Source: Rickettsiales bacterium
Lineage (GTDB): Bacteria > Pseudomonadota > Alphaproteobacteria > Rickettsiales > RGZB01
Direction of reading: 5' to 3'
Length of the DNA: 64,000 nt
NCBI GenBank assembly: GCA_044356525.1
Contig: JBIKVZ010000001.1
Coordinates: 330,863-394,862, forward strand
In this document: positions 32,387-37,441 of the stretch, one piece after another
Position numbering within the stretch: the first letter of the stretch is position 1
Layout of the letters: each line of letters opens with the position of its first letter
Notes under the pieces: generated by a model
The model's database searches: none
What the model was told of the DNA's origin: nothing
The model's input: the letters and a program-made list of their open reading frames with translations, nothing else
Position numbers and translations under genes: made by a program

Positions 32387-35113
32387 CTAAGCCGCATCCG
32401 ATTTATCAGAGAAAACGGGCTGAAGTTTAAAACCACCATCGGTGGCAGAAAGCACACCCTCGCCATCCAGATTTTGGGTGAATTCCAGCGCTCTGGCGTT
32501 GGTTACATCGGCTAAATCCTGCGCGGCGGCACCAAGCTTTGTTTTATCGCCGCTTACTTTCAGCACATCGAGCGGCCATTTGATGGACACATTCCGTTCC
32601 GCTTTTGCCTTGCGCACCAAGTTCAAAAGCTCCACCGCCAGCAAGCCTGAGCCTTCCGCTTTTTCATCACGCGGGAACGAGGCTGCTTGCGGCCACATGC
32701 CGCGTGCATGGATGCTGCCTGTTTTAGCATGGCGGCTATCAAAGACATGGCTGTAGAGTTCTTCGGTGATATGCGGCACGAATGGCGCGAACAAACGCAG
32801 CACGCCCTCAAGGCAGTGATACACGGCATGGATGGCGGAAAGCTGCTGCTTGGAAAGCGGCTCGCCTTCCTTGCCGTAAATGCGCACCTTCACCAGCTCA
32901 AGGTAATTGTCGCAGAAATCGTTCCAGAAAAAGTCTTCAATCGCCACGCGCGCATCGCAATATTCAAACGCTTCAAATTCCTTCGTCGCTTTTTCCACAG
33001 CGCGTGAAAGCCGGGTGAGAATCCACAAATCCAGCGTTTCGGTGATGATGCCGTTCTTCACATCTTCTGCTGCGCTCACGGGTTCTTTTTCAACTTTTGC
33101 CAAGTGTGCGGTCACGAACTTCGTCGCGTTCCACAATTTATTCACCAGCTTATTGCCGATTTTGAGCACATCTTCGCTAAAGGCTGTGTCCGCACCAAGG
33201 CGGCTGGTCGAGGCCCAATAGCGCACCGCGTCCGCACCCTTGTTCTGGATAAGCTCCACCGGCGTCACCACGTTACCCTTCGACTTGCTCATTTTGGTTT
33301 TATCGCTGGCGAGGCACCAGCCGGAAATCATCAGGTTTTTCCACGGAATGGTGTTCTCGTGCAAATGCGCTTTCACGATAGTGTAAAACGCCCAGGTGCG
33401 GATAATCTCATGCGCTTGTGGGCGCAAATCGGCAGGGAAAAGTTTTGTGTGGCGCGCGCCATCAATCGCTAATTCTTTCGTAATCGCTTTGCTTGAAAGT
33501 TGTGGCGAAACCGAGCTTGTTGCCCACGTATCCATGACATCCATGTCGGGCTCAATCAGGAAAATCTTTCCGTCTTTTTTTGCCAAGTAACTATTCGGCC
33601 ATGCTTTCAGCTCTGCCATTTCGTCGCTGGTTTTAAATTTCTCAAAACCCTTCGGCGTAGTGCTTAACGGGTTCACCGGAAGCTGCTCCACCGGCGCCAC
33701 AATAATCGCACGCTCACCGATGCGTTTACCCAGCGCCAATTCTTTGTAGGCACGGCCATCAAATTCACCTGCCACTTCCTCAAGTTCCACTTCCTGCGCA
33801 TACCACACCGGAAACGGCACGCCGAAATAACGCTGGCGTGAAATGCACCAATCCCAGTTCAGCCCGTCAATCCACTGGTGGATGCGGATTTTCATGTATT
33901 CCGGATTCCAGTTGCACTCGTCTGCTTTCTTTTTCAGCTGCTCTTTCTGGTCGAGAATTTTCACGAACCATTGCTGCGTGGGCAGAATTTCAAGTGGTGC
34001 GCCGCTGCGTTCCGCGCACTTCACCGCATGGGTAATCGGCTTGGTTTCCGTTAGCAGATTCTTTTCTGCCAGCAGTTCCAGCACGCGCTCACGTGCGCCC
34101 AAATGTTTCGGATCTTTGTTGGTGCATTTTTTGTTCGCGAGTTCTGCGGCAACTTCTTTGTGTTGCGCTTCTTTCAGTGCCTCTTCCAAAAGCTGCGGGT
34201 CGAGCTTACCAAACTTACTCAGCACAATGCGGTTGCCAAGTTTATGCTTACGCCACCAGTGGATGTCGGTTTCATCACCAAAGGTACAGCACATCACCAC
34301 ACCGGTGCCTTTTTCTTTATCGACTTTTTCATCGGCGATAATCGGCACGCGCACACCAAAGAGCGGCGTGACCGCCTCAAGGCCTTCATATTTTTTTGCG
34401 TCACTCGGGTCGCACATCACCGCCACGCACGCCGGAATCAACTCGGGGCGTGTGGTCATGATTTTCACTTCGCCCACACTCTCCCACGTGCCTTTTTTCA
34501 CGAGGCCAAACAGAATGTAATTTTCGGCGCTCGGCAGTTCTTTGTCTTCAATCTCTGCCTGCGCGATGGCGGTCTGATCCACAGGGTCCCAGAACATCGG
34601 CTGCAGCTGGCGATACGCCCGATTCTTCTGGAACAAATCCAAAAAGCTCATCTGCGAAAGCTTCCGGCTTTCAGCAGAAATGGTTTGGTATTCCTGCTTC
34701 CAATCCACCGACAGCGCAACCGATTTAAACAGCGCGCGGAATTCATCTTCCGCTTCTTTCACCACGCCTTCGCACACGGTGATAAATTCTTCACGCGGCA
34801 TGTCGGTCGCGCGCACTTTTTTCACTTTTTCCACAAGGCGCTCGGTGGGCAAACCATTATCGTCAAACCCCATGGGATAGAACACGTCTTTGCCAATCAT
34901 GCGCTGAAAGCGCGCCACAAAATCCGCCTGCGTGTAGCTAAAAATATGCCCCATATGCAGCAGGCCCGAAACGGTCGGCGGCGGTGTATCAATCACGAAA
35001 GTTTGGTCGCGGCTTTTATCCGCACGCCAGCCATAGGTGTGCGCGGCATCCCACTGCTGTTGCCAGCGTGTTTCCGTTTCTTTCGCGTTATAATTTTGCG
35101 GCAGATTCTTCAT
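32387..35113 (-). CDS. valS: Valyl-tRNA synthetase (Rickettsia/archaeal-like type)
   Basis: HIGH-type motif (SGLLHMGHIFSY) and KMSKSKGN. The N-terminal region (DTPPPTVSG...FYPMGFDDNGLPTERLVEK) matches the Rickettsia-type ValRS as I recall it. Confidence 0.93.
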   Translation of the reverse strand: MKNLPQNYNAKETETRWQQQWDAAHTYGWRADKSRDQTFVIDTPPPTVSGLLHMGHIFSYTQADFVARFQRMIGKDVFYPMGFDDNGLPTERLVEKVKKVRATDMPREEFITVCEGVVKEAEDEFRALFKSVALSVDWKQEYQTISAESRKLSQMSFLDLFQKNRAYRQLQPMFWDPVDQTAIAQAEIEDKELPSAENYILFGLVKKGTWESVGEVKIMTTRPELIPACVAVMCDPSDAKKYEGLEAVTPLFGVRVPIIADEKVDKEKGTGVVMCCTFGDETDIHWWRKHKLGNRIVLSKFGKLDPQLLEEALKEAQHKEVAAELANKKCTNKDPKHLGARERVLELLAEKNLLTETKPITHAVKCAERSGAPLEILPTQQWFVKILDQKEQLKKKADECNWNPEYMKIRIHQWIDGLNWDWCISRQRYFGVPFPVWYAQEVELEEVAGEFDGRAYKELALGKRIGERAIIVAPVEQLPVNPLSTTPKGFEKFKTSDEMAELKAWPNSYLAKKDGKIFLIEPDMDVMDTWATSSVSPQLSSKAITKELAIDGARHTKLFPADLRPQAHEIIRTWAFYTIVKAHLHENTIPWKNLMISGWCLASDKTKMSKSKGNVVTPVELIQNKGADAVRYWASTSRLGADTAFSEDVLKIGNKLVNKLWNATKFVTAHLAKVEKEPVSAAEDVKNGIITETLDLWILTRLSRAVEKATKEFEAFEYCDARVAIEDFFWNDFCDNYLELVKVRIYGKEGEPLSKQQLSAIHAVYHCLEGVLRLFAPFVPHITEELYSHVFDSRHAKTGSIHARGMWPQAASFPRDEKAEGSGLLAVELLNLVRKAKAERNVSIKWPLDVLKVSGDKTKLGAAAQDLADVTNARALEFTQNLDGEGVLSATDGGFKLQPVFSDKSDAA

Positions 35114-35565
35114 GCCTTACACGCGCCTTCACCTTTTTTGTGGATGAAATAATCGGCAGAAATTTTTCCCGCACCCTGAAATAAAATGAACGCCAGCAGC
35201 AGCCCCCAATAGGCATGTTCCATGCTGTGCTGATAGGTAAATTCAATCACTGCCGTCATCACCAGCAGCGCCGCAGCCGCCGTACGTGCACCAAGCCCCG
35301 CCACCAGCAGCACAGGTGCGATTAATTCTGTTCCGGTGCCTAAAATAGCCGCCAGTTTCACCGGCAGAAACGGCACCGGATGTTCATGCTCGAACAAAAA
35401 CAATGTGCCGCTCCAATTGCCCAGTTTCAGCAAACCGGAATTGAAAAACACATACCCCACCACGAGCCGCGCCAATAGCGGCACCACCGGGCTTGCGCAA
35501 TTAAGGTACGCAATCGCCTTGTTTACCAGCGCACTAAGGTACGCCATTTTTTTGCATTTGGTCAT
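35110..35565 (-). CDS. DoxX-family membrane protein (fourth gene of the bufferin operon)
   Basis: 151-aa ORF with 4 TM helices and DoxX-like LLARLVVGYVFFNSGLLKL. There are 4-nt overlaps with both the upstream DUF2063 gene and downstream valS. Confidence 0.85.
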   Translation of the reverse strand: MTKCKKMAYLSALVNKAIAYLNCASPVVPLLARLVVGYVFFNSGLLKLGNWSGTLFLFEHEHPVPFLPVKLAAILGTGTELIAPVLLVAGLGARTAAAALLVMTAVIEFTYQHSMEHAYWGLLLAFILFQGAGKISADYFIHKKGEGACKA

Positions 35566-36332
35566 ACAGTCCTCTTTTCGTGGAAAAGCCCTTGCACAAT
35601 ATGGTTTTTGAGCTCGTTTTCAAGGTCAAAATCAGCCCTTACCGCCGCTGCCGCTTCATAGGCTTCGAGCAACGTGTGCGCTTCGTGGATGGCCGCAAGC
35701 ATTTCAAACTCGGCCTCATCTATGGGTAAAACCTTCACCTCGCCTGCATGTTTTGCCACACGCCAGAAGCCCCCGCCCTTGCTGACATCCAGCGTTTCAT
35801 CGCCCGTGCCAAATATCGCCACCTGCCAAATATCGTGAATCGGAAAGTGCGATTCCACCAGCCGCACAGATGGATGCAGTTTCAGCCGCAGCGCGGCAAA
35901 TGCTTCGGGGCTGACCGCAAAGGCGGAAGGGTCGATACTGCCCGCACCATCGGCAATCATGCTTTCGTGCAGGGCGCGTTCCAGCCGCGCCACATCCGGC
36001 AAATATGCCAGCTTCCGCGCAGGCGCATAGCCACTCAAAAATTCCGGGAAACCTGTGCCGTAGAATTCTAGATTCCCATGTTGCTGCGGGTGGTGGTTGA
36101 TAAATTCCCGTGCCGCCGCGCGCATGAATTTCTTGCCCACAATCACTTCGGTTGCGGGGTAATGCTGGCTGAGCACATCGGTCAGCGCGTTGTAGCTATG
36201 GCGCCAATAAATTTCCATCTGCGCCTTGGGTGAAATATTTCCCTGCGCTAGAAACTCTGCTGCGCCTTCTGCATTTTTTTTATAGATACCGCTGATAAAT
36301 TTCTGCTGTAGTTTTGCGAGTGTTGTCATCAC
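35562..36332 (-). CDS. bufC: DUF2063 protein, partner subunit of the MNIO enzyme
   Basis: 256-aa ORF with a typical DUF2063 N-terminus (LQQKFISGIY...YWRHSYNALTDVLSQHYPATEVIVGKKFMRAAAREFI). It overlaps the DUF692 gene by 4 nt. Confidence 0.85.
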   Translation of the reverse strand: MMTTLAKLQQKFISGIYKKNAEGAAEFLAQGNISPKAQMEIYWRHSYNALTDVLSQHYPATEVIVGKKFMRAAAREFINHHPQQHGNLEFYGTGFPEFLSGYAPARKLAYLPDVARLERALHESMIADGAGSIDPSAFAVSPEAFAALRLKLHPSVRLVESHFPIHDIWQVAIFGTGDETLDVSKGGGFWRVAKHAGEVKVLPIDEAEFEMLAAIHEAHTLLEAYEAAAAVRADFDLENELKNHIVQGLFHEKRTV

Positions 36333-37180: not shown

Positions 37181-37189
37181 GGCTAAACA

Positions 37190-37441
37190 CTAGGCTTTCG
37201 AGCCATTCACCAGTTTGTCGCACAGGCCTTTTGGCACCAGCACCCATTCTTCTGGATCAGCATCTTTTTTCGCAAGACCGGCGCAAGAGTGCGTGCCGGA
37301 TTTATTCGCGCAGTCATTCTTGCCGGCTTTCACGATGCCGTAGCATTTTTCCTGCTCTTCAGCGCGCGCCGGTACAGAAAGCGTAGCGGCGGAAATAGCA
37401 ATCAGGCCTGCTGCTGCCAGAAACTTAGACGTCGTATTCAT
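37190..37441 (-). CDS. bufA: DUF2282 bufferin-type RiPP precursor peptide
   Basis: 83-aa ORF with GGGAG 6 nt upstream of the ATG. Sec signal peptide (…ATLSVPARA/EE). The core has four Cys in the conserved pattern EKCYG, NDCA, HSCAG, GLCD (C33, C44, C53, C74). Confidence 0.9.
   Translation of the reverse strand: MNTTSKFLAAAGLIAISAATLSVPARAEEQEKCYGIVKAGKNDCANKSGTHSCAGLAKKDADPEEWVLVPKGLCDKLVNGSKA

Follow-up and report, generated by a model that had tools for sequence, protein, structure and literature searches.

A probable canonical Buf1-type bufferin gene cluster overlapping the valyl-tRNA synthetase gene in a Rickettsiales bacterium

Does the four-gene cluster that precedes the valyl-tRNA synthetase gene of a Rickettsiales bacterium direct the synthesis of a metal-buffering peptide, and in what respect does it depart from the clusters already described? 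The question was addressed in a window of 64,000 nucleotides (assembly GCA_044356525.1, contig JBIKVZ010000001.1, positions 330,863 to 394,862 of the forward strand), in which a preliminary description had recognised an operon for a bufferin, a peptide that is ribosomally synthesised and then modified post-translationally (RiPP). Our analysis supports this reading, which withstood the attempts at refutation at the sequence level. The locus is, with high probability, a canonical and functional Buf1-type bufferin (captophorin) biosynthetic gene cluster, and nothing in the sequence contradicts Buf1 membership. The four genes, with product lengths in amino acids (aa), are as follows.

bufA, 37441..37190, minus strand: Buf1/DUF2282 bufferin precursor, 83 aa
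bufB, 37180..36329, minus strand: multinuclear non-haem iron oxidase (MNIO, formerly DUF692), 283 aa
bufC, 36329..35562, minus strand: DUF2063/HvfC_N partner of the MNIO with a C-terminal alpha/beta domain resembling a RiPP recognition element (RRE), 255 aa
bufD, 35565..35110, minus strand: DoxX-family membrane protein, 151 aa

Reading frames and coordinates, read directly, place the genes in the order bufA, bufB, bufC and bufD on the minus strand. The proposed cluster of DUF2282, MNIO, DUF2063 and DoxX genes is therefore present where it had been located. All four products exceed the gathering scores of their Pfam families widely, far beyond chance. The GC content is unremarkable across the region. 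bufA and bufB are separated by a spacer of 9 nt, and the bufC/bufD junction is a genuine ATGA overlap. It had been stated that each of the following junctions is a 4-nt ATGA-type overlap, which is exact for bufC/bufD but only approximate for bufB/bufC. At the latter junction, a GTG start at 36332 (256 aa) gives a GTGA overlap, and an ATG start at 36329 (255 aa) gives an overlap of 1 nt. The ATG start is the one chosen in public gene calls, and it agrees with the family N-terminus MxxLxxLQ.

BufA was found to be a clear member of PF10048 (DUF2282/BufA1), with an E-value of 1e-25 and a score of 89.9 bits against a cut-off of 22.4, the match covering profile positions 2-52 of 53. The profile comparison with DUF2282 that had been suggested for the 83-aa reading frame thus gave a match. 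The start codon is preceded, at a distance of 6 nt, by a GGGAG ribosome-binding site (RBS). As judged from inspection and hydrophobicity, the N-terminus is a predicted Sec signal peptide, with K6 in the n-region, hydrophobic residues 7-21 (Kyte-Doolittle means over 11 residues of at most 2.3) and an ARA/EE cleavage motif, in which A-R-A forms the -3/-1 motif. Inspection of the N-terminus revealed neither a lipobox cysteine nor a twin-arginine motif. Cleavage after A27 would leave a core of 56 aa (37360-37193). The earlier account of a well-placed RBS, a Sec signal peptide and a 56-aa core therefore agrees with what is seen on inspection.

The four cysteines of BufA, C33, C44, C53 and C74, correspond to CysI to CysIV and lie in the contexts EKCYG, NDCA, HSCAG and GLCD. 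Both positions and contexts had been reported correctly, since checking the codons one by one located TGC at 37345-43, 37312-10, 37285-83 and 37222-20. A total of 4,633 BufA homologues were found at E<=0.001, and the best 120 of these were aligned. Eight columns of this alignment are invariant, including all four cysteines, E31, G35 and N42. The cysteine spacing of 11/9/21 is the modal one, being common to 114 of the 117 homologues with four cysteines, and the residues flanking the cysteines of the modified type follow the family consensus. A comparison with characterised precursors had also been suggested. It was made with the BufA1 of Caulobacter vibrioides, using the published cysteine positions and secondary-structure residues. 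The C. vibrioides core has cysteines at positions 12, 23, 31 and 52, a spacing of 11/8/21, so that BufA contains one extra residue between CysII and CysIII.

With regard to the fold, an AlphaFold2 model built from the homologue alignment gave a predicted local distance difference test (pLDDT) score of at least 93 for residues 31-83, whereas the N-terminus had a low pLDDT and lay outside the fold. The model comprises a strand at residues 30-34, which holds C33, a strand at residues 66-70, which starts with W66, and a helix at residues 73-76, which holds C74. As modelled, BufA reproduces the published Buf1 fold of two strands and a helix, CysI being part of strand 1 and CysIV of the helix. The C. 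vibrioides bufferin 1 fold, verified by nuclear magnetic resonance, likewise has CysI in strand 1, a second strand led by a tryptophan and CysIV in a short helix eight residues past this tryptophan. A sequence search of the PDB with BufA returned nothing useful.

BufB matches PF05114 with an E-value of 2.6e-102 and passes NF050167, the NCBIfam model for the MNIO family bufferin maturase (MNIO_BufB equivalog), with 365.9 bits against a cut-off of 310. The iron ligands of MbnB are known from the crystal structure of MbnBC: H54, H90, E133, D163, N166, H192, D208, H210 and E239 (PMC9060507). They were mapped onto BufB through phmmer alignments to 7TCR (MbnB) and 3BWW, a Hvf-type protein from Histophilus somni and the closest solved MNIO structure to BufB. 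The predicted BufB ligands, in the same order, are H64, H99, E144, D177, N180, H208, D225, H227 and E254. The assignment of E254 depends on the 3BWW alignment, as the pairwise MbnB alignment is two residues out of register there. D256 is the counterpart of FonB-D249, the proposed catalytic base (PMC13097082), and is predicted to play this role in BufB. The nine predicted ligands and D256 are all 100% invariant among 161 homologues from buf loci of GTDB genomes and JGI metagenomes. The presence of the histidine, aspartate, glutamate and asparagine ligands of an MNIO had been left as a check on the 283-aa protein; none is missing.

BufB departs from the consensus held by at least 97% of the 161 homologues at eight non-ligand positions, namely F41 (Y in the consensus), D46 (G), A49 (H), A65 (G), D98 (E), S101 (A), I174 (L) and T252 (L). 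Among the matches listed, the best from GTDB and JGI are only about 50-55% identical to BufB. Taken together, the identity level and the consensus departures point to a divergent branch of BufB. The relatives of BufA and BufB, among the matches listed, are mostly alphaproteobacterial and include some metagenome-assembled genomes of Rickettsiales or Micavibrio.

Profile comparisons also placed the two remaining proteins above their gathering scores, as had been anticipated for DUF2063 and DoxX. BufC matches PF09836 (E=3.8e-18, 66 bits against a cut-off of 27.2). Its AlphaFold2 model (pLDDT 92.6, predicted template modelling score 0.88) comprises a helical N-terminal domain and an alpha/beta C-terminal domain. 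No PDB relative of BufC was detectable by sequence search. In a Foldseek search of the PDB with the model, the top matches were TglI (8hci_A, 8hi7_A) and NGO1945 (3dee), each with a probability of 1.00, and these were the only ones with E<0.001. TglI (8HCI/8HI7) and NGO1945 (3DEE) are both MNIO partner proteins, the latter being the DUF2063 structure. The modelled fold supports the assignment of BufC as an MNIO partner protein with an RRE-like C-terminal domain, for which peptide binding is predicted. BufD matches PF07681 (E=3.4e-14, 53.7 bits against a cut-off of 23.6). DoxX genes are frequent in Buf1 clusters, but not universal.

The cluster is maintained in related genomes. The same buf genes are carried by a relative with approximately 91% DNA identity (NCBI GCA_964467255.1, hereafter L166). 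The ratios of nonsynonymous to synonymous substitution rates (dN/dS) between the two are 0.09 for bufA, 0.09 for bufB, 0.15 for bufC and 0.18 for bufD. With values of 0.07 for the neighbouring valS and 0.16 for ileS (the latter from a protein-guided alignment), the buf genes are under purifying selection comparable to that on their housekeeping neighbours. BufC of L166 and L167 is 89% identical to that of the window, and BufC of a contig from JGI 3300045391 is 48% identical. On this contig (genes 46-2357), bufB and bufC are interrupted by a 214-aa gene on the opposite strand with no Pfam match. On a second contig from the same JGI dataset, BufA is 77% identical to that of the window and bufA lies only 143 bp from ileS. 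The farther BufC relatives L168 and L169 occur in usual contexts, with tandem bufA genes and, in L169, a pair formed by an extracytoplasmic function (ECF) sigma factor and a zf-HC2 anti-sigma factor.

A mechanism can be proposed from the work on homologous systems (Leprevost et al. 2024, PMC11626156; Gadgil et al. 2026, PMC13097082). BufA would be synthesised with its Sec signal peptide, which should be dispensable for cysteine oxidation. BufB, an iron enzyme, would act with BufC in the cytoplasm to convert both central cysteines, C44 and C53 (Cys17 and Cys26 of the core), to 5-thiooxazoles by a four-electron oxidation per residue, with a mass change of -4.03 Da per oxidised cysteine. The Sec machinery would then export the peptide and signal peptidase would cut after A27. 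In the periplasm, a C33-C74 disulfide would tether the short helix to the first beta-strand. The resulting mini-protein of 56 residues is expected to bind one copper ion with very high affinity via the two thiooxazole sulfur/nitrogen pairs (2N/2S). In this form it would buffer excess periplasmic copper and protect the cell. The preliminary description had the precursor cysteines oxidised to thiooxazoles, which can be expected of the two central ones. For C33 and C74 a disulfide is expected instead, given that in C. vibrioides bufferin 1 only CysII and CysIII become 5-thiooxazoles, and CysI and CysIV form a disulfide (PMC11626156). The unmodified predicted core has a monoisotopic mass of 5930.906 Da. 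With the shifts reported in PMC11626156 (a loss of 10.08 Da from 5930.91 Da), the predicted mature peptide would have a monoisotopic mass of 5920.83 Da.

Of the systems that have been characterised, buf1ABCD of C. vibrioides (CCNA_03363-03366; PMC11626156) shares with this locus the order of DUF2282 precursor, MNIO, DUF2063 and DoxX genes, as well as a Sec-dependent precursor with four cysteines. The core is shorter here, with 56 residues versus 68 in C. vibrioides, 5 versus 11 residues before CysI and 9 versus 16 after CysIV. In contrast to C. vibrioides, no sigF/nrsF pair lies nearby, the operon is fused to valS, and the locus is known from sequence alone. When compared with the catalogued Buf1 clusters (PMC12452194) and the DUF2282 group of captophorins (PMC13097082), the locus shows all sequence features used in those surveys, namely the clustering of the four Pfam families, a signal peptide and four conserved cysteines. 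The difference resides in the context, which consists here of housekeeping aminoacyl-tRNA synthetases rather than sigma/anti-sigma genes.

The oxazolin, fontiphorin and gonophorin systems (HvfABC(X), FonABC and NgoABC) also combine an MNIO and a DUF2063 protein, with or without DoxX, and Sec-dependent precursors, and their products contain 5-thiooxazoles and bind copper. However, oxazolin-type precursors have EGKCG-type repeats, many modified cysteines and probably stochastic copper binding, whereas BufA has no EGKCG-type repeats and is predicted to be a folded DUF2282 mini-protein with four cysteines. In BufB, T257 takes the place of Phe250 of FonB, as is typical of DUF2282-associated MNIOs. 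The methanobactin system MbnABC relies on an MNIO with the same nine iron ligands, which oxidises cysteines, and its product also binds copper. This product is, however, an oxazolone/thioamide compound secreted for copper acquisition, made with the partner MbnC from a short, leader-dependent MbnA.

What distinguishes the locus is its connection to the adjacent genes. The other features of the region are as follows.

valS, 35113..32387, minus strand: valyl-tRNA synthetase (ValRS), 908 aa
bufA 5' region, 37442..37515, minus strand: 74 nt, with the RBS GGGAG
XRE-family (HTH_3) gene remnant, 37516..37824, minus strand: includes a 96-aa open reading frame at 37806..37516
hairpin within bufB codons 21-34, 37089..37118, minus strand: terminator-like
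ileS, 38077-41367, plus strand: isoleucyl-tRNA synthetase, 1096 aa, with a C-terminal DUF5915 domain, divergent neighbour

The preliminary description had the gene string end with the DoxX gene at 35110. This is not the case, as the valS ATG (35113-35111) overlaps the bufD stop codon TGA (35112-35110) as ATGA and the string continues. bufA, bufB, bufC, bufD and valS thus form a string of five genes with a largest gap of 9 nt. A later valS start is impossible because the Pfam domain tRNA-synt_1 begins at residue 17 and the next methionine lies inside the HMGH motif. The arrangement of ileS divergent from bufABCD-valS, with the same 4-nt overlap, was also found in L166 and L167 (L166:8217-8220) and on the JGI 3300045391 contig with 48% BufC identity. 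Neither valS nor ileS was found beside buf at any of 160 other loci (from GTDB genomes and JGI metagenomes, with up to 6 kb of flanking sequence). As the overlap is kept in the relatives and absent from these 160 loci, the bufD-valS fusion is a conserved peculiarity of the lineage. The overlap suggests that bufABCD and valS are probably co-transcribed and translationally coupled, although by itself it is no proof of co-transcription. Together with the lack of a nearby regulator, it suggests read-through with an essential gene, and hence expression that is constitutive rather than strictly metal-induced. The buf cluster itself is flanked on either side by a class I aminoacyl-tRNA synthetase gene, ileS and valS respectively.

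As for regulators, the neighbours of the buf cluster are ileS, the truncated XRE remnant, valS, a 139-aa unknown, a DUF2671 gene, argG and a gene for a DnaJ-domain protein. No match to sigma-70 regions 2 and 4 or to NrsF was found among the 38 open reading frames of the window that were scanned. Buf1 clusters commonly include a sigF/nrsF-type ECF pair, though they are not defined by it. The window contains a single two-component pair, PhoR/PhoB, located with pstCAB at 50.5-56.1 kb, 13-18 kb away. This phosphate regulon block (50511-56136, plus strand) consists of genes for a PhoR-like histidine kinase, PstC, PstA, PstB and an OmpR-type response regulator, and has no relation to buf. It had been noted previously that neither an ECF sigma/anti-sigma pair nor a two-component regulator lies beside the operon, which is confirmed. 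A truncated XRE-family gene, however, lies directly upstream.

The 96-aa reading frame of this gene (37806..37516) gave no Pfam match. By tblastn, it corresponds, with 83% identity, to residues 60-155 of an XRE-family HTH_3 protein of 155 aa, for which L166 and L167 have an intact gene (L166:5327-5794). Approximately 650 bp, comprising the helix-turn-helix (HTH) domain and upstream DNA, are missing from the window, as seen from a break in the blastn alignment between L166 positions 4853 and 5504. The deletion junction lies near 37813-37824 and shows imperfect microhomology. In addition, the original stop codon has mutated from TAG to TGG (Trp). The dN/dS of the remnant versus L166, from a protein-guided alignment, is still 0.16. 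The gene is absent from the distant relative represented by the JGI 3300045391 contig with 77% BufA identity, and hence is no conserved regulator of buf.

No promoter was found upstream of bufA with a sigma-70 pattern scan, which returned fewer sites overall than shuffled controls, and visual examination of the same region revealed neither a -35/-10 pair nor an ECF-type motif that was convincing. Between the window and L166, the 74-nt bufA leader hardly differs. The only upstream sequence in common with the distant relative L164 is the block CCTAGGCCT, at 37465-37480 on the minus strand, some 30-38 nt ahead of the bufA start codon. A scan of both strands of the whole 64 kb at the Rfam gathering thresholds revealed no tRNA, rRNA, riboswitch, small RNA or other RNA family.

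Several of the above points weigh against a functional copper-buffering bufferin cluster. Cysteine modification, export, disulfide formation and copper binding are all predicted by analogy with homologues, and the signal peptide of BufA is proposed from inspection and hydrophobicity only. The co-transcription of valS is deduced from the overlap alone. The eight consensus departures of BufB and its identity of about 50-55% mean that substrate handling could differ in detail. Moreover, the window scans found no metal-responsive regulator or recognisable promoter, and regulation consequently gives no support to a role in copper stress. One rival explanation retains the chemistry but assigns the peptide a different role: it would be constitutive and serve routine copper handling, the buffering of another metal, or protection against redox or sulphur stress in connection with DoxX, possibly in association with a host, rather than an inducible last-line copper defence as in Caulobacter. 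The nearest two-component pair being PhoR/PhoB, 13-18 kb off, with no ECF sigma/NrsF pair nearby, is consistent with this, as are the truncation of the upstream XRE gene, its complete absence from a distant relative and the conservation of the valS overlap in the lineage. It is also consistent with the ankyrin-repeat, RTX and DUF2671 genes in the neighbourhood, and the literature leaves both other metals and the role of DoxX open. Nevertheless, every characterised member of the family binds copper and protects against it (PMC11626156, PMC13097082), and the BufA residues near the modified cysteines are those of the family consensus. Furthermore, a regulator encoded at another genomic site could act in trans, and valS may have its own promoter within bufC or bufD. 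On balance, such a change of role appears rather unlikely. A related scenario can be put forward tentatively: in this lineage, the bufferin operon would have lost its dedicated metal-responsive control and joined a housekeeping transcription unit, in which bufABCD and the essential valS would form a single operon with translational coupling, retained down to 48% BufC identity. The copper-buffering peptide would then be constitutive, which might help an alphaproteobacterium living with eukaryotes to cope with chronic copper exposure in host vacuoles.

The remaining rivals dispute the identity or the integrity of the cluster. If the cluster were a decaying or inactive relic next to essential genes, the truncation of the adjacent XRE gene and the eight BufB departures from near-invariant positions would be understandable. 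Yet all four reading frames are intact, every catalytic residue and all four cysteines are retained, the dN/dS values of 0.09-0.18 are comparable to those of valS (0.07) and ileS (0.16), and relatives with as little as 48% BufC identity still have the cluster, making decay very improbable. Membership of another MNIO RiPP family, either of the oxazolin/fontiphorin type (Hvf, with EGKCG repeats) or of the methanobactin type, might be considered in view of the closeness of BufB to the Hvf-type 3BWW, and of the matches of BufB to the NCBIfam models for HvfB, MbnB, ApyH and ChrH, of BufC to HvfC and of BufD to HvfX. However, BufB remains under the cut-off of every one of these models (225.6 versus 360 for HvfB and 62.8 versus 325 for MbnB, TIGR04159) and passes its own, and BufC and BufD remain under theirs (34.2 versus 142 for HvfC and 50.8 versus 80 for HvfX). 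As the precursor is a clear DUF2282 protein devoid of EGKCG repeats, the partner is a DUF2063 protein, and neither an MbnA-like nor an MbnC-like gene occurs in the cluster, this assignment is scarcely credible. Finally, the legacy annotations would make the four proteins functionally unrelated: a DUF2282 "integral membrane protein", a UPF0276 protein, a "DNA-binding" DUF2063 protein and an oxidoreductase. These exact proteins do bear such names in IMG, and the old Pfam description line agrees. The names are older than the experimental work, though, and are refuted by the published biochemistry of homologues. BufA has a predicted cleavable signal peptide and a soluble cysteine-rich core, the modelled DUF2063 fold is matched by those of TglI and 3DEE, which are MNIO partners, and the four genes abut or overlap and co-occur in thousands of genomes. 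The probability that the legacy names are right is next to nil.

The annotation status of such loci has changed. The IMG names of the four exact proteins are "uncharacterized membrane protein", "UPF0276 family", "hypothetical protein" and "putative oxidoreductase", in line with the earlier remark that standard pipelines label all four genes as hypothetical or DUF proteins. This remark is now outdated for Pfam, in which PF10048 is labelled "BufA1" and PF09836 "HvfC_N", and for NCBI, which offers NF050167 in NCBIfam and the name "BufA1 family periplasmic bufferin-type metallophore". IMG-style annotation still hides such clusters, whereas the current Pfam and NCBIfam models catch them. The locus can be relabelled bufABCD with confidence. 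Thousands of Buf1 clusters have been catalogued (PMC12452194), and the captophorin dataset holds 21,424 precursors (PMC13097082). A new canonical cluster is therefore unsurprising, and this one is not novel: it is a canonical addition to a well-described family, by which RiPPs already recorded in thousands of genomes gain one uncultured lineage. Nothing about it is out of the ordinary except the lineage-conserved valS fusion and the lack of a regulator. With its conserved bufD-valS fusion, the lineage lends itself to the question of whether bufferins can be constitutive, and not only produced under metal stress. Since the core is compact, with 56 residues, and its predicted mass is precise, heterologous expression would be an easy test.

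Elsewhere in the window, a 791-aa ankyrin-repeat protein is encoded at 5604-7979 on the plus strand, two large RTX (HemolysinCabind) proteins at 45942-48530 and 48654-50489 on the plus strand, and the DUF2671 protein at approximately 31.3-31.7 kb on the minus strand. The ankyrin-repeat, RTX and DUF2671 genes suggest a eukaryote-associated lifestyle and, possibly, an alphaproteobacterial affiliation.

The hairpin within bufB has 13 bp, is GC-rich and is followed by the T-run TTCCTTTTTT, with an RNAfold energy of -25.1 kcal/mol. It is kept in L166, in which one G-C pair has become G-U, and is absent from the distant relative L163. It may have arisen by chance or may be a lineage-specific attenuator favouring bufA mRNA. 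An attenuator setting the stoichiometry of the products was considered and set aside, as the hairpin is not conserved in the distant relative.

The tRNA-dependent PEARL enzymes suggest, by analogy, that valS might take part in the RiPP chemistry. Such a role is very unlikely, as the encoded ValRS is full-length, is under strong purifying selection and has housekeeping genes around it. ValRS has 908 aa in the window versus 943 aa in L166 (L166:8217-11048), and the nucleotide alignment of the two valS genes breaks near window positions 34135-34239, which points to an indel within this essential gene.

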